Virus record (IMG/VR): IMGVR_UViG_644736359_000006 | From: a virus | Lineage: Duplodnaviria; Heunggongvirae; Uroviricota; Caudoviricetes | Reading direction: 5' to 3' (one strand) | DNA: 31,135 bases | Shown here: positions 9,149 to 26,555 of the stretch, one piece after another | Numbering within the stretch: the stretch's first letter is position 1 | Layout: every line of letters starts with the position of its first letter | Made by a program: the position numbers and the translations under genes | The notes under the pieces: model-generated | Seen by the model: the letters and a program-made list of their open reading frames with translations, nothing else | Databases searched by the model: none | What the model was told of the DNA's origin: nothing

Positions 9149-9204
9149 TGATCTTACCCAGCAATAGTGGACACGCGGCTAAGTGAGTAAACTCTCAGTC
9201 AGAG

Positions 9205-9513
9205 GTGACTCACATGACAAAAACAGTATCAACCAGTAAAAAACCCCGTAAACAGCATTCGCCTGAATTTCGCAGTGAAGCCCTGAAGCTTGCTGAACGC
9301 ATCGGTGTTACTGCCGCAGCCCGTGAACTCAGCCTGTATGAATCACAGCTCTACAACTGGCGCAGTAAACAGCAAAATCAGCAGACGTCTTCTGAACGTG
9401 AACTGGAGATGTCTACCGAGATTGCACGTCTCAAACGCCAGCTGGCAGAACGGGATGAAGAGCTGGCTATCCTCCAAAAGGCCGCGACATACTTCGCGAA
9501 GCGCCTGAAATGA
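9205..9513 (+). CDS. insE: IS3 OrfA (InsE), HTH transposase component
   Basis: ORF ...[31 protein letters not shown]... with C-terminal leucine-zipper-like region; first ATG at 9205, conventional start a few codons later. Confidence 0.85.
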
Positions 9514-10376
9514 AGTATGTCTTTATTGAAAAACATCAGGCTGAGTTCAGCATCAAAGCAATGTGCCGCGTGCTCCGGGTGGCCCGCAGCGGCTGGTATA
9601 CGTGGTGTCAGCGGCGGACAAGGATAAGCACGCGTCAGCAGTTCCGCCAACACTGCGACAGCGTTGTCCTCGCGGCTTTTACCCGGTCAAAACAGCGTTA
9701 CGGTGCCCCACGCCTGACGGATGAACTGCGTGCTCAGGGTTACCCCTTTAACGTAAAAACCGTGGCGGCAAGCCTGCGCCGTCAGGGACTGAGGGCAAAG
9801 GCCTCCCGGAAGTTCAGCCCGGTCAGCTACCGCGCACACGGCCTGCCTGTGTCAGAAAATCTGTTGGAGCAGGATTTTTACGCCAGTGGCCCGAACCAGA
9901 AGTGGGCAGGAGACATCACGTACTTACGTACAGATGAAGGCTGGCTGTATCTGGCAGTGGTCATTGACCTGTGGTCACGTGCCGTTATTGGCTGGTCAAT
10001 GTCGCCACGCATGACGGCGCAACTGGCCTGCGATGCCCTGCAGATGGCGCTGTGGCGGCGTAAGAGGCCCCGGAACGTTATCGTTCACACGGACCGTGGA
10101 GGCCAGTACTGTTCAGCAGATTATCAGGCGCAACTGAAGCGGCATAATCTGCGTGGAAGTATGAGCGCAAAAGGTTGCTGCTACGATAATGCCTGCGTGG
10201 AAAGCTTCTTTCATTCGCTGAAAGTGGAATGTATCCATGGAGAACACTTTATCAGCCGGGAAATAATGCGGGCAACGGTGTTTAATTATATCGAATGTGA
10301 TTACAATCGGTGGCGGCGGCACAGTTGGTGTGGCGGCCTCAGTCCGGAACAATTTGAAAACAAGAACCTCGCTTAG
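9510..10376 (+). CDS. insF: IS3 OrfB (InsF), DDE transposase catalytic domain, in -1 frame relative to orfA
   Basis: 288-aa ORF overlapping the orfA stop (ATGA) in the -1 frame; DDE-type core ...HTDRGGQY... Confidence 0.85.
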
Positions 10377-10529
10377 GCCTGTGTCCATATTACGTGGGTA
10401 GGATCAATTCACCTAAATACGAGGCATTGCTGTAGTTGAATTGCATTGCTGTATTAGCCTGACAGTGACAGAATACGATATTGACTCTGTCACTTGTGAA
10501 ATGGTCAGAATGGTTAGCAGTTATGGTGA

Positions 10530-11672: not shown

Positions 11673-11879
11673 CTTCATTTTCACTTTCTTAAATCTAACG
11701 ACAGACGGCTAACATTTAAGTATTGTGAAATATTATCAAATGTAATCATCATTGATTTACAAAAGATACATTTTGCCCCGAAAGGATTCCTGTCAGAAAC
11801 ATCAAAAGATGATGTTCTATACTGAGAACCATGGCAACACGGGCATCTAAAGTGAATATGGTTTGTAATATTTTCTACC

Positions 11880-12092
11880 TCAAAGTGCCACAACATGAAC
11901 AGCCGCGGGGCCTTTAGGTCCGTTCTCAATACCAAATTCGACTTCCTGATTCTCAGTTAACGTTTTGAAATCGTTGCTCTGAATAGCTGAGAAATGGACA
12001 AACACATCTTTGCTACCATCTTTCGGCGTGATGAAACCAAAACCTTTTTCAGGGTTAAACCATTTCACTAAACCAGTCATTTTGTTAGACAT
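11880..12092 (-). CDS. cspI: CspA-family cold shock protein
   Basis: 70-aa product [38 protein letters not shown]... with RNP1/RNP2 motifs; long AT-rich 5' leader upstream. Confidence 0.85.
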
Positions 12093-12455
12093 CATTATTA
12101 CCTTTTGAAGAAGTTAGCCCTTGGGCAGAATGGTCCGAAAAAAAATATCAGAGAGAAAAACCAACAAGGAAATCTCAAGAGGTACAAATAATAAAATTAT
12201 AACAATGACTGCTTCAGATAATTTTGTAACAAACCAGAACACCATTAACGCATGATTAACCAACCATAGCAAGGATTACTTTTGTAAAGAAAAACACACG
12301 AATGAAACAATAGCTTTATTTATTAATAAAACGTGTCATTCTGTCTAATGACCTTTTATCTTACCCTTAAGATTTCAAGGATTTTGACTCATGGAAGAGT
12401 CCTTTTTATTTAAATTTCACATTCAGCGCTAAAAATAATCCGATTTAATATTAAT

Positions 12456-13596: not shown

Positions 13597-13857
13597 ATGG
13601 ATTACACAAATCTACCAAAACAAACTTTTGCTGATTTAATCGCACTCAGGCAAGCAGTCGTAGCTCTAATCAACTTGTTGCCGGAGAAGGAAAAGGAATT
13701 AGTTAAAGCGCTTCTTAACAGAACTGCCGCCGATTTTTCATCATATCCACTGACAGATGACCTTGCGGACCTTCCTGAATTAATTGCAGCGTCCGCCAAT
13801 AAGCTTACTGAAGAGATTTACCCTCCTCAAAAATCTTCACAAAATTCCTGCGAGTAA
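13597..13857 (+). CDS. Hypothetical protein, opposite strand to the lysis genes
   Basis: 86-aa ORF with GAGG RBS 6 nt upstream of ATG; 3' end overlaps the convergent 183-aa gene; could be a shadow ORF. Confidence 0.3.
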   Translation: MDYTNLPKQTFADLIALRQAVVALINLLPEKEKELVKALLNRTAADFSSYPLTDDLADLPELIAASANKLTEEIYPPQKSSQNSCE

Positions 13858-14356
13858 CTTCAATGCAATAATCGTAAAACGCCGCAAACTGCTCATCGCG
13901 GCGTTTTTTTTCATCTTCAGAAGGAATCAGCACCGACAATTTTTTATTCAGATCAGCGACGCTGCCCTCCAGTTTTTCAATGGGCGATTCAATATCATCT
14001 TTTTCTGACCGCAATGCCGTCGGTGGCGTCTTCAGAGAACCAGTAATTCTTCCCGGTAGCTTTCCTTTGTAGGTTATCCACACATTCTGCGCCTCTAAAA
14101 TTATGGGGCGCTTTTCCGGCGACTGCTCATCCCCTTCACATAACCCGGCAGCAACATCCAGGAAGACCTGTCTGATGCTCCTTCTGGCTGCTGCCTCATA
14201 AAACTCCAGCGCAGCTCCTTCAACACGGTCCATGGCGACATCCAGGCCAAAAATTTCACCGTCAAAGCGTTCTTTGTCCTGTAAGGCTACAGTTACCGTA
14301 ACTTTATTCTCAAAATTACGGACTCCTTTCACAACCAGTTCATAGTCTTGAGTCAT
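13805..14356 (-). CDS. Uncharacterised protein between holin and endolysin (ydfR position)
   Basis: 183-aa acidic ORF; GAGGAGAG RBS; starts 5 nt after the holin stop; no TM segment or signal peptide. Confidence 0.5.
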   Translation of the reverse strand: MTQDYELVVKGVRNFENKVTVTVALQDKERFDGEIFGLDVAMDRVEGAALEFYEAAARRSIRQVFLDVAAGLCEGDEQSPEKRPIILEAQNVWITYKGKLPGRITGSLKTPPTALRSEKDDIESPIEKLEGSVADLNKKLSVLIPSEDEKKRRDEQFAAFYDYCIEVTRRNFVKIFEEGKSLQ

Positions 14357-14360
14357 TGGA

Positions 14361-14576
14361 TTACTCTCCTCTCGCAGCCTTACGCCTGTCTTCTTTAATC
14401 TTGAAATAAAGATTTGTCAGATACGTCAGCATGCCAAATACCAGACTACCCAATACACCTATTGCCGCCCACTGTGAGGGCGTGACTTTATCGAGCAACT
14501 GTAAAAACCAGTAGCCAGCACTGCCTGCAGAGGTGCTGTAGGCGATGCCCGTTGTTAACTTATCCATGGATTTCAT
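14361..14576 (-). CDS. essQ: Class II pinholin, phage 21 S-like
   Basis: 71-aa product [71 protein letters not shown] with dual-start motif MKSM; GGAGGTGA RBS. Confidence 0.85.
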
Positions 14577-14666
14577 AGCCTCACCTCCGCAGATAACGGA
14601 TGGTGTACACGGTTTGGTTCGAAGAAGGAAAGAAGTTACATTAGCGTAAGGCCCGAACATCTATTC

Positions 14667-14697
14667 AAAAAGAAAAACGCCAGCAATTATTCTGGCG
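14667..14697 (-). terminator. Rho-independent terminator between AraC-family gene and holin
   Basis: Stem cgccag/ctggcg with 8-nt loop, followed on the minus strand by UUUUUCUUUUU. Confidence 0.55.
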
Positions 14698-14766
14698 TAG
14701 CTAAAAATATCGTATAATCTTACACTTCAAAAAATAACTTTATAAAATGCCATCACATCATATCTT

Positions 14767-15489
14767 CTAAGAAAATCTTGATAAATATTGGTGCGGAGGC
14801 ACACCAAAATATCCTCTAAAAACACTTACAAAATATGATGCATTGTCATACCCGCATATTCCCGCCACCTTGCCGACAGTATGGTTACTGTAGATCAATA
14901 ATCTTTGCGCCATCATCATTCGTTCTTCAAGAATTAATTTACTAAACGATAACCCTTCGTCTTTTAATTTTCTTTTTAACAAACTCTCGCTCATATATAA
15001 TCTTGAAGATATATCACAAAGTCTCCATGACGCTGAGATATCCGAGTGAATAATAGCCTTAACTTTACAACCTAAGCTATTAAGACTTCCGAACAAAAAA
15101 CTTTGCACTATTTTCTCTGAAGATAAGACAGCAAGACATGCAAGTGATATTTGATTTCTAACTACATCCACGGTTTTGCTATCACAATTCAAGCATGCAA
15201 CCAAGTTCTTTAACAATGAAAAATCTTCACATTCTACTATCAAGTATGACGGATAAAACCTTCTTACAGAAAAAGGTGAGAGTGTGTAGTTTTTAAAGAA
15301 ATCATTAACTGTTTTCTCCTCAACATCTACGATCATTAGATGATCTGTATTTGACGAAAAAAGATCTTTTAAATTGTATTCAATGAGGACAGCATTTCCT
15401 TTTTTAAACAAAATATCTTCTTTACCAATTCGGACACCAAACGAGTTCAACACCAAAATGATAGAACATATGTATGGCATATTATCCAC
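14767..15489 (-). CDS. AraC/XylS-family transcriptional regulator, AppY/Rns-like
   Basis: 240-aa ORF with C-terminal AraC-type HTH (...GKVAGICGYDNASYFVSVFRGYFGVPPHQY); AT-rich coding sequence suggests foreign origin. Confidence 0.75.
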   Translation of the reverse strand: MDNMPYICSIILVLNSFGVRIGKEDILFKKGNAVLIEYNLKDLFSSNTDHLMIVDVEEKTVNDFFKNYTLSPFSVRRFYPSYLIVECEDFSLLKNLVACLNCDSKTVDVVRNQISLACLAVLSSEKIVQSFLFGSLNSLGCKVKAIIHSDISASWRLCDISSRLYMSESLLKRKLKDEGLSFSKLILEERMMMAQRLLIYSNHTVGKVAGICGYDNASYFVSVFRGYFGVPPHQYLSRFS

Positions 15490-16758
15490 CTGATATCATT
15501 GGGGTTACACCAGGTAAGTATAGGTGGAAAATCAATATTCGCCAGTTCAACAATAAGGAAAATCTCATTGCATCACAACTATAAAACCATGTGTTTAACT
15601 CACAAAAAACAAATCATTAAACTAATCTGTTATATTATAATAGCTGCGTGCAATAATAATATTATATGCTCTTAATATTCACTTGAAATATCTTCATATA
15701 AAAACAGATTGAATAAAATCTTTTGGGGCTGGTATGTTTACCAACATTAAATTGCATCTCAATGTTTTCTTTAGCGTGAACAGGATTTTTATAAAAACTG
15801 ACACTATGAGCATCATAGCGTAGTTTTTACGATTGTAAATATCCTGCATACAGGAACTCATCACTTTCAGATGATATCGCATACAGTTAATTCACCATCA
15901 GTCTTAGAGCCAGTTCTTCCGGATAGGGATCGAAGTAATTCTGTGTAAGCAAGTAATCATTAGGATACTCACCCAGATAATGCTTCAGCAGAGTCAACGG
16001 CGCAAGAAGAGGCAATGTGCCAAAGCGATAGTTAAGTATAACCTCGCTCAACTCTTTACGCTGGCGTGTGCTTAAGTAATTACTAAAATACCCCTGTATA
16101 TGCATCAGCACATTCGTGTGATTTTTACGTGATGCTGGTTTTCTGAGAATCGCCATCAGATTATCACGATACACCTCAAAGTATGATTCAAGGTCCGCCC
16201 ACTCGTGTATTGCAGCCACAAATGGTCCCATATCTTTATAGCCTGCCTGGCTATGCGCCAACAACTGAAGCTTATAACGACTATGAAAAGCTAATAACTC
16301 TCTTCTTGATAATTTCTCCTTGTAAAGGTGATTGAGCTCATCCAAAGCAAAAACTCTTTCAATAAAATTCTCACGAAGCACTGGATCATGTAATCGCCCA
16401 TCCTCTTCAACCGGTAGCCAGGAAAACTTTTCCATCAAAGTGCTCGTAAATAGTCCCACTCCATCTTTACGACCTCGATTACCATTTTCATCATAGACAC
16501 GCACGCGCTCCATGCCACAGCTGGGAGATTTAGCACAAACCACAAACCCCGATACATCCTTTAATTTGTCCATATAAGAACGACTAAACTCTGTCATTCT
16601 CTCTGTCACATCCTCATTCTGGTCGTGGCTGAAACACATCCGTATATTTCCTTGCTTCGAGCGCACAAGTCGTAGAGCAGGACGCGGAACTGGCAGCCCT
16701 ATTGATCTTACCCAGCAATAGTGGACACGCGGCTAAGTGAGTAAACTCTCAGTCAGAG

Positions 16759-17067
16759 GTGACTCACATGACAAAAACAGTATCAACCAGTAAAAAACCC
16801 CGTAAACAGCATTCGCCTGAATTTCGCAGTGAAGCCCTGAAGCTTGCTGAACGCATCGGTGTTACTGCCGCAGCCCGTGAACTCAGCCTGTATGAATCAC
16901 AACTCTACAACTGGCGCAGTAAACAGCAAAATCAGCAGACGTCTTCTGAACGTGAACTGGAGATGTCTACCGAGATTGCACGTCTCAAACGCCAGCTGGC
17001 AGAACGGGATGAAGAGCTGGCTATCCTCCAAAAGGCCGCGACATACTTCGCGAAGCGCCTGAAATGA
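16759..17067 (+). CDS. insE: IS3 OrfA (InsE)
   Basis: Identical product to copy 1 orfA. Confidence 0.85.
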
Positions 17068-17930
17068 AGTATGTCTTTATTGAAAAACATCAGGCTGAGT
17101 TCAGCATCAAAGCAATGTGCCGCGTGCTCCGGGTGGCCCGCAGCGGCTGGTATACGTGGTGTCAGCGGCGGACAAGGATAAGCACGCGTCAGCAGTTCCG
17201 CCAACACTGCGACAGCGTTGTCCTCGCGGCTTTTACCCGGTCAAAACAGCGTTACGGTGCCCCACGCCTGACGGATGAACTGCGTGCTCAGGGTTACCCC
17301 TTTAACGTAAAAACCGTGGCGGCAAGCCTGCGCCGTCAGGGACTGAGGGCAAAGGCCTCCCGGAAGTTCAGCCCGGTCAGCTACCGCGCACACGGCCTGC
17401 CTGTGTCAGAAAATCTGTTGGAGCAGGATTTTTACGCCAGTGGCCCGAACCAGAAGTGGGCAGGAGACATCACGTACTTACGTACAGATGAAGGCTGGCT
17501 GTATCTGGCAGTGGTCATTGACCTGTGGTCACGTGCCGTTATTGGCTGGTCAATGTCGCCACGCATGACGGCGCAACTGGCCTGCGATGCCCTGCAGATG
17601 GCGCTGTGGCGGCGTAAGAGGCCCCGGAACGTTATCGTTCACACGGACCGTGGAGGCCAGTACTGTTCAGCAGATTATCAGGCGCAACTGAAGCGGCATA
17701 ATCTGCGTGGAAGTATGAGCGCAAAAGGTTGCTGCTACGATAATGCCTGCGTGGAAAGCTTCTTTCATTCGCTGAAAGTGGAATGTATCCATGGAGAACA
17801 CTTTATCAGCCGGGAAATAATGCGGGCAACGGTGTTTAATTATATCGAATGTGATTACAATCGGTGGCGGCGGCACAGTTGGTGTGGCGGCCTCAGTCCG
17901 GAACAATTTGAAAACCAGAACCTCGCTTAG
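17064..17930 (+). CDS. insF: IS3 OrfB (InsF)
   Basis: As copy 1 but ...EQFENQNLA instead of ...EQFENKNLA. Confidence 0.85.
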
Positions 17931-18299
17931 GCCTGTGTCCATATTACGTGGGTAGGATCATATAGCCATTTCCGGACATACTGGTCTGAATGTTACCCAT
18001 TCCACTAATTTGTCCATTAAAAAGTCATCTCTTTTGTGACCACCATCAAAACGAACAGCAGAACCGCCCAAACAACCGCTGATCCCAATCACAGGTTTTT
18101 TTATCATTTCCTCCCCCTTGACTAATTCATTAACACATAAACTTTGTAGTGCACGGACTAAATTGCCTTTCTGGCTTCATCACTGACAATTTTTCTGTTA
18201 TTGACTATTCCTAATATAGTAGGAAAGTTCTTTAAGTGATCGGTCGTACTCATCTATCTTTCATACTTACTCTCAACTATCAAAAGTACAGGATTTATT

Positions 18300-18824
18300 A
18301 TGAAGTTATGGCCTGTGTTGACTGGCATTGCACTCTCTTTCACTCTTATAGCATGTAAGGCTCCGACACCACCTAAAGGTGTGCAGCCGATTACAAATTT
18401 TGACGCCAACCGCTACCTCGGAAAATGGTATGAAATAGCTCGCCTCGAGAACTGGTTCGAACGTGGTCTGGAACAGGTCAGCGCTACTTATGAAAAACGG
18501 AACGACGGAGGGATTCGCGTACTTAACCGTGGATACGATCCAACGAAAAACAAATGGAGCGAGAGCGAAGGTAAAGCATACTTTACTGGAGATACTAAAA
18601 CTGCAGCGTTGAAAGTTTCGTTTTTTGGCCCCTTCTATGGTGGCTATAATGTAATCAAACTGGATGATGAGTATAAGTATGCTCTTGTCAGTGGTCCGAA
18701 CAGAGAATACCTATGGATTCTGGCAAGGACCCAAACTATTCCAGATAATGTAAAAGCAGACTATGTGCGTACCGCTCAAAAGTTGGGATTCAATGTCAAT
18801 GAACTATTATGGGTTAAACAATAA
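18300..18824 (+). CDS. blc: Bacterial lipocalin Blc-like outer-membrane lipoprotein
   Basis: 174-aa ORF with lipoprotein signal (LIAC) and lipocalin motifs ...FDANRYLGKWYEIARLE...KVSFFGPFYGGYNVI...; diverged from chromosomal Blc (judged from memory, not aligned). Confidence 0.8.
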   Translation: MKLWPVLTGIALSFTLIACKAPTPPKGVQPITNFDANRYLGKWYEIARLENWFERGLEQVSATYEKRNDGGIRVLNRGYDPTKNKWSESEGKAYFTGDTKTAALKVSFFGPFYGGYNVIKLDDEYKYALVSGPNREYLWILARTQTIPDNVKADYVRTAQKLGFNVNELLWVKQ

Positions 18825-18979
18825 AATCCCCACCCGAAATGATACTTATTAGAAAAAAACCAGCCTTTGGGGAGGCTGGCTAAATCAGGAAATAAGCTGT
18901 TATATGATAATAACTACGTTGCGATTCCAACATTTAAAATGTTAGACTAATGAAAATCAGACAGCAACTTTTCCTTTAA

Positions 18980-19372
18980 TTATTTCGAACAATCAGCATC
19001 CATCTCCAATCGGAGATCCAACACCATCAGCATGCCCTCCACTACGCCCTCAGCTTTCTGGAGCATCCTGCCAACCCAACAATCAGATCGCCCATGCTTA
19101 CGTGCAAGCGCCATAAAAGTCATGCCGCCGACATAATAGTCCACCAATAAATCATGTAAATCGCTGTTGTTTTTTTTCAGGCGAGCCATACATTCACAAA
19201 TGATCATCGCGTCATCGTCACAGCATTGCGGACGAGATCTTACTTTTGAAGGAATTAATCCCTTAAAACCGGCGGCAATGGACGACCAGGTCACATCTTC
19301 ATGATTATTAGCCGCCCATGCCCCCCAACGCTCAAGAACCATCTGAATATCACGCATCAACTTACTCCACAA
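18980..19372 (-). CDS. quuQ: Late-gene antiterminator Q (QuuD/QuuQ family)
   Basis: ORF ...[75 protein letters not shown]...; alternative start at 19357. Confidence 0.7.
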
Positions 19373-19374
19373 AA

Positions 19375-20025
19375 TTAGGCCAGCACACCAATTGCCAGCG
19401 CGCGATCGATAAATCGAAAAATCAGCTCCAGTTGGGAGCCATACTTCTCTTCAAATGCCACGGTATCCGTATGCAACTCGTCGTGATGCTTTCTGCACAA
19501 AGGCAAAACAAAGAGATCATGTGCTTTGGTTCCCATTCCGCCCTGCCCGTGACCAATCAGATGATGCGGATCGTCGGCTGGCATACCGCAGCAAGCACAC
19601 GGCTGTGTCTTAACCCAGCGTGTGTATTTCTCCTTAACCCACCGGTGACGTTTAGGCAGCTTCATGAAAGATTCCGGAGACTCTGGATCAACGGTGATGC
19701 TTACCACCGTCTTTTCCTGTGATGGGTTTTGTTGCTGGTGGGCGTGAGGCAACGGTGCAAGATTTTTTGTGCGCTGTTTCAATATGCTGGTGGCGGTCTG
19801 CTCTCCCGGTACGATGTCGCTTTCGCGGTACACCGAGCAGATTTTTTCCGCTGGTAATCCCAGCGAGCGACGTAATACCGCTTCCGGTAGCGCGTCCGCC
19901 AGCTGATTGCGGACCGCCCACCAGGATACCCGGGTATTGTGGAATACCGGCATGGATTCACGGCCCGGCTTAACGACCACCAGCCCAAGTTCCGGTACCA
20001 GAACAGGTCGAAGTAATACCCGCAC
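19375..20025 (-). CDS. DUF968-like nuclease-domain protein (YdfU-like)
   Basis: C-terminal ...[46 protein letters not shown]...; N-terminal half unrecognised; GC-rich with several overlapping shadow ORFs. Confidence 0.5.
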
Positions 20026-20839: not shown

Positions 20840-20995
20840 TTACTCCTCAGGTTCGTAAGCTGTGAAGACAGCGACCTCCGTCTGGCCGGTTCGGATTCGT
20901 ACCTCGCAGAGGTCTTTCCTCGTTACCAGTGCCGTCACTATGACGGTTAAACAGATGACGATCAGGGCGATTAACATCGCCTTTTGCTGCTTCAT
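20840..20995 (-). CDS. hokD: Hok-family type I toxin
   Basis: 51-aa product MKQQKAMLIALIVICLTVIVTALVTRKDLCEVRIRTGQTEVAVFTAYEPEE; in-frame upstream extension (mok-like) in the ORF track; AAGGAGAAG RBS. Confidence 0.85.
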   Translation of the reverse strand: MKQQKAMLIALIVICLTVIVTALVTRKDLCEVRIRTGQTEVAVFTAYEPEE

Positions 20996-21607
20996 AGCCT
21001 GCTTCTCCTTGCCTTTCGGCACGTAAGAGGCTAACCTACATGTGTCTAGCATGAAATTGGCCTCAGATTAATGTTAAGCGTCTTGCAGGACGCGTAATGT
21101 TAACTGGGGCTTTTCTCTATCTGCCGTTGGTGTTCATGCCCGAGGCAGATAGCCTCAAGCACCCGCAGCCATTCTACTTAACTACCGTTACCTCTCCAAT
21201 ATGAAATCAATCAGAAAGGTGATCCATAAGAACAATAACAAGACAATAAATTGCCATTACAGCCACAATAGCCAGCGTGCATTTGAGAACCAGCACATAA
21301 ATCTCCTGCTCTTGACGTATACAGGCACTGATAAATATGTGTCTTCGTGCTCGTTACTTCAATACGTAAGCGTCAGTTGCGCGTAATCAAATCAGACAAC
21401 CGACTTTAAACCAGGGACAAACAGCAGGTAAAATAATCAAACGTTATTTTAAGCCATATCATGGCTGCAAGATTTCCTCTAATTTCAACAAGATGAGCAG
21501 GTCATTGCTTGCACTGATGACCTGCTCATTAATCATGATTATTTGAAAATTAAGGTAGGCGTACTATATATAGAAACACTGCTACGCTCCGTTGGCATAA
21601 TATAAAA

Positions 21608-22294
21608 TCATTCCTGGCCTTCTTTACCGTAGTGGAGTTGACCAATTTTGATTAGAGGGCGTCCCTGAGATTTGCGGTGTAGATTGGTATCGCGCAGTGA
21701 ATACACGCAGCCACAATATTCCTGCTGATAGAATTGTTCGCGCTTGCTGATTTCAATCATGCGGGAAGAGCCGCCCTGCTTTCGCCAGTTATAATCCCAG
21801 TACACCATGCCCGGATAATACGCGACGGCTCGCCGTCCACAGTCGTTAACCTGCTGCATATTTTTCCAGCGTGAAATGCCCAGTGAGCTACTGATCACAC
21901 TGAAACCATTTTCAGCGGCATACAGCGCAGTCCGCTCAAAACGCATGTCAAAACACATGGTACAACGGATCCCTCGTTCAGGCTCCCATTCCATTCCTTT
22001 GGCTCGCTCAAACCAGTTGTCTGTGTCGTAATCAGCATCAATAAATGGCACGCCGTGTTGTTTAGCAAAGCGAATATTCTCATCCTTACGAATTAAATAC
22101 TCTTTCTGAGGATGAATGTTCGGGTTGTAGAAAAAGATGGTGTAGTCGATTCCCGAGGCCTGAAGCGCCTCCATCACTTCACCGGAACATGGAGCACAGC
22201 AAGAGTGCAGTAATAGTTTTTTTGCCCCGTTTGGGAGCTCCAATTTGGGGCGTTTGAAATCAGCAACAGTCATAAATGTGTTTATGAGGTTCAT
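21608..22294 (-). CDS. QueH-like (DUF208) epoxyqueuosine reductase homologue
   Basis: Motifs [12 protein letters not shown] near the N-terminus and [10 protein letters not shown] near the C-terminus; start codon uncertain (ATG 22294 or 22273, or GTG 22387), none with a clear RBS. Confidence 0.5.
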
Positions 22295-26327: not shown

Positions 26328-26380
26328 TTTTCTGGTGACGTTTGGCGGTATCAGTTTTACTCCGTGACTGCTCTGCCGCC
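26328..26380 (+). ncRNA. dicF: DicF small RNA
   Basis: Sequence tttctggtgacgtttggcggtatcagttttactccgtgactgctctgccgcc followed by gttttt matches the 53-nt DicF with its 3' terminator hairpin. Confidence 0.85.
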
Positions 26381-26555
26381 GTTTTTAAAGTGAATTTTGT
26401 GATGCGGTGAATGCGGCTAAGCGCACGCGGAACAGTTAAAACCAAAAACAGTGTTATGGGTGGATTCTCTGTATCCGGCGTTAATTGTTAACTGGTTAAC
26501 GTCACCTGGAGGCACCAGGCACTGCATCACAAAATTCATTGTTGAGGACGCGATA

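Follow-up and report, generated by a model that had tools for sequence, protein, structure and literature searches.

The window analysed here is a 31,135-nt stretch of the virus record IMGVR_UViG_644736359_000006, and the interval studied within it, 14767-18824, carries three genes between the antiterminator Q and holin genes of a prophage: a lipocalin gene, a rudS gene split by the insertion sequence (IS) IS3, and a gene for an AraC-type regulator. Positions 14300-19400 are 100% identical to Escherichia coli B REL606 (NC_012967.1, 1613068-1618168) and to other B-lineage genomes. In the RefSeq annotation of REL606, the region belongs to a Qin-type cryptic lambdoid prophage that adjoins rspB and has its late genes on the minus strand of the window; the integrase is frameshifted and the tail genes are truncated in this defective prophage. 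The slot is bordered upstream by the gene for antiterminator Q (18980-19357, minus strand; PF06530, E = 8e-51; RefSeq WP_001204787.1, 'antiterminator Q family protein'), and downstream by that for a class II (P21-type) holin, essD/essQ (14361-14576, minus strand; PF04971, E = 6e-34; essD in RefSeq). Domain matches and RefSeq thus agree with an initial annotation of this DNA, which had read the interval as accessory cargo that a Qin-type lambdoid prophage carries between Q and holin. The domain searches that it had called for supported Lipocalin_2, the 2-thiouracil desulfurase and DUF1722 domains and the AraC helix-turn-helix (HTH), and the E-values put the predicted identities of Q, lipocalin, AraC protein, holin and the desulfurase and DUF1722 domains far outside chance.

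The same annotation had described a fusion of DUF523 and DUF1722 in the middle of the interval. Both domains are present, but they do not form one gene here, since they are carried by two fragments of 49 and 270 codons that flank an IS3 element, which had been overlooked. The element (16703-17960, plus strand, 1258 bp) makes up 31% of the interval, carries HTH_Tnp_1 and rve domains and is labelled 'IS3-like element IS3 family transposase' in RefSeq. It is bounded by imperfect 39-nt inverted repeats (16703-16741 and 17922-17960) and by a direct 3-bp target duplication, TAT (16700-16702 and 17961-17963), and its transposase is encoded by orfA/orfB (16768-17930) with a programmed frameshift. All the hallmarks of IS3 (a length of ~1.26 kb, inverted repeats, a 3-bp duplication and an orfA/orfB DDE transposase) were therefore found, and the copy shares size, 39-nt repeats, duplication length and frameshift with IS3 itself (IS3 family, IS3 group), with nothing unusual about it.

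The 5' fragment of rudS (17961-18107, minus strand, codons 1-49) matches positions 1-45 of PF04463 (E = 8.7e-12) and holds Cys12, Cys44 and Glu46; it ends with the codon ATA (Ile49), which represents one copy of the target duplication, and RefSeq lists the fragment as a pseudogene 'missing C-terminus'. The 3' fragment (15887-16699, minus strand, codons 50-319 plus stop) matches positions 64-141 of PF04463, holds Arg55, Ser107, Ser109, Cys110 and the whole DUF1722 domain (E = 5.8e-40), and is listed as a pseudogene 'YbgA family, missing N-terminus'. IS3 thus splits rudS after codon 49, between E46 and R55, and since it parts Cys12, Cys44 and Glu46 from Arg55, Ser107, Ser109 and Cys110, the window copy cannot yield RudS activity.

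When IS3 and one TAT were deleted in silico, a single 319-aa (amino acid) open reading frame (ORF) resulted. The uninterrupted fusion of TudS (PF04463) and DUF1722 (PF08349), absent from the window as it stands, is recovered in this way and occurs in intact alleles elsewhere. Indeed, the empty site, CTGGCAGCCCTATAGCCATTTCCGG, with a single TAT, was found in E. coli FDAARGOS_1077 (locus L076) at the same rspB-side chromosomal locus, where the 319-aa gene is intact and differs by one residue, and also in phage IdasGreatGrand. The insertion, observed directly against these empty-site comparators, is secondary and is the sole lesion of rudS. IS3 occupies the rudS site in ~58 complete E. coli genomes and, because these are independent, an assembly artefact is unlikely.

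The cassette recurs well beyond the window. Phages IdasGreatGrand and 1H12 carry Q, lipocalin (on the opposite strand), rudS, AraC gene and holin in identical order and orientation, and ten more isolates named 'Lambda_*' match the rudS-araC segment. Among 5426 complete E. coli genomes, with matches counted at a coverage of at least 80%, the whole Q-to-holin cassette was present in 954, the AraC gene in 996 and the rudS and lipocalin genes in 1048, which indicates that the three genes travel together in ~95% of carriers. The initial annotation had called the combination unusual, a description at odds with its occurrence in isolated phages and in 954 of these genomes. One modest point that is new beyond existing annotation is that ~19% of E. 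coli genomes carry rudS; ~58 of the 1048 carriers of the pair have this IS3.

The content of the Q-to-holin slot differs between prophages. In K-12 Qin it holds cspB/cspF, as had been stated initially and as comparison with K-12 confirmed; the gene set of the window is therefore not universal in Qin-like prophages, a point on which the first reading of the locus could have failed. DLP12 carries nmpC, other strains carry an ompC-like porin or a methyltransferase, and a prophage of ST131 carries a methyltransferase, tRNAs, IraM and an esterase. In Stx phages, the Q-to-S slot is occupied by the stx genes. The window cargo shares with these known cases (stx; nmpC of DLP12; cspB/cspF of K-12 Qin) a slot bounded by Q with a downstream terminator and by the holin, and a content that likewise varies between otherwise related prophages, and differs from them in consisting of a tRNA de-modification enzyme, a lipocalin and a regulator instead of toxin, porin or cold-shock genes. 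A fixed slot whose content is present or absent among related viable phages, as expected of a moron, was seen in IdasGreatGrand, 1H12 and the ten Lambda_* isolates, with replacement in K-12 Qin, DLP12 and the ST131 prophage; blc itself is among the morons already reported from gut lambda phages, of which >50% carry it (Mathieu et al. 2020, PMC6969025). We thus consider it highly probable that the interval is a recurrent lambdoid-phage moron cassette between Q and the lysis genes, of which the cryptic E. coli B prophage of Qin type has kept a decayed copy; in this copy rudS is dead, and the lipocalin and AraC genes are still intact. The locus is ordinary, already annotated, partly dead and of low interest, and the value of its analysis lies mostly in housekeeping, as a corrected reading of a well-known genome region.

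Several copies of IS3 or of the cassette were met in other settings. A second IS3 (9149-10406) has the orientation of the copy in rudS, to which it is 99.84% identical, and adjoins a truncated tail-tip gene. The two direct copies bracket ~6.3 kb with gnsB, cspI, the lysis genes, the AraC gene and the rudS 3' fragment, a segment that could be lost by IS-mediated deletion or moved by composite transposition. E. coli C (NZ_CP029371.1, 502171-503034) retains only the lipocalin gene and the rudS 5' fragment, at 100% identity, and the match stops at the IS3 insertion point, suggesting an IS3-adjacent deletion of the remaining cassette. Two short contigs binned as 'Candidatus Nanosynbacter' (L060, JARKOR010000151.1; L065, JARKOR010000135.1) carry Q, lipocalin, rudS, AraC and holin genes at 85-98% protein identity, and are almost certainly misbinned E. 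coli or phage DNA.

The restored 319-aa protein is 97.2% identical to that of IdasGreatGrand and 91.5% identical to gp66 of phage 1H12, which was described as RudS_vir by Jamontas et al. 2024 (PMC11417400). It has the cluster cysteines C12, C44 and C110 and the residues E46, R55, S107 and S109, which correspond to the catalytic Glu, Arg, Ser and Ser residues in RudS_KT, at positions that agree with those given for RudS_vir in Table 1 of that work (PMC11417400). RudS_vir (H3V29_gp66) thus shares Cys12/Cys44/Cys110 and the TudS and DUF1722 architecture with the restored protein, and its gene has the same Q-to-holin position and the same lipocalin and AraC flanks; unlike it, the window gene is broken by IS3 after codon 49 and cannot give an active enzyme. 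TudS-DUF1722 fusions are tRNA 4-thiouridine (s4U) desulfidases, and expression of RudS_vir in E. coli lowered tRNA s4U (PMC11417400). The function that had been proposed as 'thio-nucleobase desulfurase-like' was therefore already published, as RudS. An intact rudS product would be a [4Fe-4S] fusion enzyme that restores uridine from the 4-thiouridine at tRNA position 8; for the restored protein, removal of s4U is predicted from its 91.5%-identical orthologue in 1H12.

Overexpression of RudS diminishes the growth delay triggered by ultraviolet A (UVA) in E. coli, and chromosomal rudS genes have been placed in light-responsive operons (PMC11417400). The host employed in that work was BL21(DE3), and E. 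coli was said to lack RudS (PMC11417400). This statement holds for function in B strains, yet the rudS-lipocalin pair occurs in 1048 of the 5426 complete E. coli genomes, and the IS3-inactivated pseudogene of BL21/REL606 explains the RudS-null behaviour of B strains in the published s4U assays. That the species can carry rudS matters for work on natural isolates that deals with tRNA s4U, with growth delay under UVA or with the stringent response. More distant rudS-like genes, annotated 'YbgA family' and with 66-68% nucleotide identity, were also seen on E. coli plasmids of ~300 kb (NZ_CP067312.1, 119329-120274; NZ_LR890350.1, 206932-207872), indicating that RudS enters E. coli via plasmids as well.

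The lipocalin gene (18300-18824, plus strand) encodes a Blc-type lipoprotein of 174 aa (Lipocalin_2, PF08212, E = 7.5e-43), is convergent with Q and runs antisense to the late operon, on the other strand from Q, rudS, araC and the lysis genes. The protein scores 312.6 bits against a cut-off of 267 for the NCBIfam Blc subfamily NF007786 and matches Blc in the PDB (3mbt, E = 8e-67). Its N-terminus, MKLWPVLTGIALSFTLIAC-K, is a signal peptide with the lipobox L-I-A-C and Cys19, so that an outer-membrane location is predicted. It shares with E. coli Blc (b4149; PDB 1qwd, 2aco, 3mbt) the Lipocalin_2 fold, the length and the lipobox with Cys19, and was correctly recognized at the outset as a diverged Blc-like lipoprotein, with a score above the subfamily cut-off and 58.6% identity to K-12 Blc. 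This identity compares with a median of 78.7% to rudS-linked enterobacterial lipocalins; indeed, unlike Blc, the window protein belongs to a lineage (~79%) found divergent beside rudS in Enterobacter, Leclercia, Citrobacter sedlakii and others, and not beside ampC.

In a synteny scan with restored RudS as the query and one genome per species, 62 chromosomal rudS loci were compared, with 66-75% protein identity, from Citrobacter, Enterobacter, Leclercia, Lelliottia, Kluyvera, Klebsiella, Pectobacterium and other genera. A full-length lipocalin gene was observed upstream of rudS, on the opposite strand, at 40 of them (within L008-L071; for example L030, 4021-6960, and L014, 5292-6957), and the lipocalins of these 40 loci have a median identity of 78.7% to the window lipocalin versus 66% to K-12 Blc. 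The two genes are directly adjacent in Citrobacter sedlakii, as in the phages, whereas those of Enterobacter cloacae are separated by genes for a MerR/MlrA-like regulator and a transthyretin-like protein, as is usual in the chromosomal pairs. The divergent pairing and the closer identity point to a captured syntenic pair, and the genes of the cassette had accordingly been misjudged as three unrelated ones. Lipocalin and rudS would have been captured jointly from an enterobacterial chromosomal locus.

The AT-rich region between them (18108-18299, 34% GC) presumably holds the divergent promoters. This spacer is conserved in the cassette phages and could not be aligned with its counterparts in Citrobacter sedlakii and Citrobacter sp. 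JGM124; with no conserved operator in the alignment, a MerR site could not be deduced. The word 'lipocalin' occurs 0 times in the RudS paper (PMC11417400), and the literature on LitR and light regulons yielded nothing usable about a lipocalin. The pairing is a modest new point beyond annotation and gives a testable lead on the poorly understood function of bacterial lipocalins.

The AraC/XylS regulator gene (14767-15480, minus strand) encodes 237 aa (HTH_18, E = 3e-16, and HTH_AraC; phrog_1450). Its start is more likely the ATG at 15480, used by RefSeq and phage orthologues, than the GTG at 15489. The gene has 33.6% GC versus ~43.6% for lipocalin and rudS, and is separated from rudS by a 406-bp spacer (15481-15886, 31% GC) whose sole ORF, of 62 aa, has no family match. 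A homologue was found at none of the 62 chromosomal rudS loci. The different GC content and the lack of chromosomal linkage to rudS indicate that the AraC gene was acquired separately.

Full-length BLASTP identities, in a comparison that covered four proteins, were 48% to ECs_0287 of strain Sakai, 33% to GadW, 30% to AppY and 29% to YdeO. A C-terminal double HTH was found, together with an N-terminal domain, and the protein aligns over its full length with the GadW/AppY/YdeO/PatE subgroup. The AlphaFold (AF2) model has a mean predicted local distance difference test (pLDDT) value of 85.4, and its best full-length folds in the PDB, by Foldseek, are CsvR, Rns and ToxT, with template modelling (TM) scores of 0.5-0.6. 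The AT-richness, the subgroup alignment and this resemblance bear out the earlier description of an AT-rich regulator of the AppY/Rns type, which, judging from the model, is fair at the fold level.

Close homologues occur only in E. coli, where they form three allele groups (~99%, 85% and 76%), with distant relatives at 60% and ~48%. The 48% relative, ECs_0287, is the AraC-type gene of the Sakai prophage Sp1 at thrW, which we take to be O-island 8 (OI-8)/CP-933H. PatE (z0321) is located in OI-8 (PMC10877973), so that by its position ECs_0287 is probably the PatE of O157, which would then be the nearest characterized relative. PatE and PsrB activate gadE and hdeA (PMC10877973), and relatives such as PatE, GadW, AppY and YdeO act on chromosomal stress regulons (PMC10877973; PMC10057817). 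By analogy, the window regulator would most likely be trans-acting, with chromosomal stress genes of the acid-resistance kind as targets, and is a candidate prophage input to acid or stress regulons in ~18% of strains. It is AT-rich like the prophage-borne PatE, PsrA/PsrB of enterohaemorrhagic E. coli (EHEC) and AppY of DLP12, and has the size and two-domain layout of PatE, AppY and the chromosomal GadW, GadX and YdeO. Unlike PatE, PsrA, PsrB and AppY, it forms a separate orthologous group, phrog_1450, that is restricted to E. coli prophages, and it sits in the Q-holin slot, whereas regulators of that type lie at a prophage end.

As for transcription, rudS and the AraC gene share the orientation of the late operon. 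The terminator scan gave a GC-rich hairpin with a T-run (18858-18881, minus strand) ~100 nt downstream of Q, a candidate terminator of the tR' type that also lies just beyond the 3' end of the convergent lipocalin gene, and the segment from the Q stop codon to this hairpin is nearly identical in IdasGreatGrand and 1H12. Another terminator-like hairpin with a T-run (14677-14698, minus strand) follows the AraC gene, ahead of the holin, and is likewise conserved in the phage copies. If lambdoid late regions are a guide, the hairpin after Q would terminate a short late leader unless Q modifies the polymerase, and Q-modified RNA polymerase would on induction read rudS and araC together with the lysis genes. 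The initial annotation had put all three genes under Q-dependent late transcription or promoters of their own; control of all three by Q fits poorly with a lipocalin gene antisense to the late operon and a rudS inactivated by IS3. The lipocalin would be transcribed from its own promoter, against the late operon, an antisense layout that recurs in the Bor-like gene of 1H12. Of the signals that would let a moron be expressed from a repressed prophage, terminator-like hairpins are found after Q and after araC, and promoter-like hits do not exceed the shuffled background, none of them a match of at least 9/12 for rudS. The regions downstream of Q and upstream of the holin are not conserved in alignment with DLP12, so that the DLP12/K-12 context cannot place the late promoter here. 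A tRNA scan found none in the slot, unlike late regions of the Stx type.

The prophage also carries, in its early region, a gene for the epoxyqueuosine reductase QueH (21608-22273, minus strand), at the place taken by relBE in K-12 Qin. QueG is already present in E. coli. The QueH gene is present in 995 of the 5426 complete genomes and is 99.5% identical in phage HannyBb, which has QueH without the cassette; the ST131 prophage has it at the same early-region position, with the cassette absent, and the search of the phage collection gave no QueH match in the cassette phages. Since the two occur apart in phages and prophages, a functional linkage between QueH and the cassette was rejected. QueH is a separate module, and its co-presence in the window reflects mosaic assortment and not a linked pair. 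The three cassette proteins each belong to a PHROG family whose function is unknown. PADLOC matched neither these proteins nor QueH to a known defence system, so that a reading of the cassette as a defence system was dropped.

Several points weigh against the reading of the interval as a phage moron cassette with an s4U desulfidase and a trans-acting regulator. The promoter scan was not above background (15 hits versus 10.5 +/- 3.0 in shuffles), which leaves claims of own promoters and the position of the late promoter unproven. The AraC protein scores far under the NCBIfam equivalog cut-offs (YdeO, 112 versus 348 bits; GadX, 90 versus 500 bits), and the targets of YdeO and GadX are therefore not confidently transferable to it. 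The equation of ECs_0287 with PatE, which is probable, rests on prophage position and not on a sequence labelled PatE. Finally, RudS_vir showed the weakest desulfidation per protein level among the RudS enzymes tested (PMC11417400).

Other explanations of the locus were weighed against this background. That three independent, intact and functional genes are expressed under Q or from their own promoters, and form with QueH an unusual nucleobase-modification set, was the initial proposal; its three domain assignments are right, the lipocalin and AraC ORFs are intact and QueH does lie in the same prophage, yet we regard it as very improbable, because the split and annotated pseudogene already refutes an intact rudS, lipocalin and rudS are a conserved syntenic pair, the lipocalin gene runs antisense to late transcription and QueH occurs without the cassette in HannyBb and the ST131 prophage, while the cassette phages gave no match to it. 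We find it just as hard to credit that IS3 left behind a new product instead of a dead gene, namely a YbgA-like stand-alone DUF1722 protein expressed from a GTG start (259-aa ORF, 15887-16666). The frame is open with a complete DUF1722 domain, this part is 48% identical to YbgA, and stand-alone DUF1722 proteins occur naturally (PMC11417400), but there is no sign of a promoter or ribosome-binding site for the ORF, the fragment keeps an incomplete TudS domain without two of the three cluster cysteines, RefSeq labels it a pseudogene, and overexpression of YbgA left s4U unchanged (PMC11417400).

The AraC protein could be a local regulator of rudS and/or the lipocalin that replaced the MerR/MlrA-like one, rather than acting in trans on acid-resistance genes, and its co-occurrence with the pair in ~95% of carriers, the absence of a MerR-type gene from the phage cassette and the lack of a good sigma-70 promoter for rudS, compatible with dependence on an activator, would suit such a role. 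On balance we think this rather unlikely: its nearest characterized relatives (probable PatE, GadW, AppY, YdeO) work on chromosomal stress regulons (PMC10877973; PMC10057817), its GC content and lack of chromosomal linkage set it apart from rudS, and its gene lies downstream of rudS and is not divergent from it. Somewhat less likely still is that the cassette mainly serves the phage, with RudS stripping s4U8 from host tRNAs after UV/SOS induction and so averting near-UV cross-linking of tRNA, growth delay and the stringent response, such that late translation continues, and with the lipocalin as a membrane-protecting partner from the same photo-stress locus. In viable phages, rudS does lie in late-operon orientation directly downstream of Q and the terminator, RudS overexpression lessens UVA growth delay and chromosomal rudS genes belong to light-responsive operons (PMC11417400), and the chromosomal rudS-lipocalin locus has a MerR/MlrA-like regulator. 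This regulator is lost from the phage copy, however, the cassette persists in many cryptic prophages including that of the window, which fits host benefit or neutrality equally, and the activity of RudS_vir is comparatively low (PMC11417400). In its fullest form the idea, which we hold to be equally doubtful, is that temperate lambdoid phages captured a chromosomal photo-stress pair, lipocalin and RudS, and put rudS in the late operon, so that induction by UV or SOS would erase s4U8, the near-UV sensor of host tRNAs, and late translation would escape UVA arrest, with AraC in place of MerR-type control. If true, rudS would be an auxiliary gene by which phages edit the tRNA epitranscriptome of their host, and ~19% of E. 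coli genomes would carry it, although the species was said in print to lack RudS. We thus retain the moron cassette with a captured lipocalin-rudS pair, a separately acquired regulator and a benefit that could fall to phage or host.

Elsewhere in the window, an Rfam search of its whole length at gathering thresholds found nothing inside the interval, and three RNAs outside it: the sok antitoxin RNA (20990-21164, minus strand) beside hokD, a cspA-type thermoregulator leader (11834-12250, minus strand) upstream of cspI, and the small RNA DicF (26330-26381, plus strand). Downstream of the holin, the ORF of the DUF1327 (YdfR) family (13805-14356, minus strand) has 183 aa versus 103 aa in K-12 and is a truncated pseudogene in RefSeq, and an 86-aa ORF annotated as hypothetical (13597-13857, plus strand) overlaps its 3' end.

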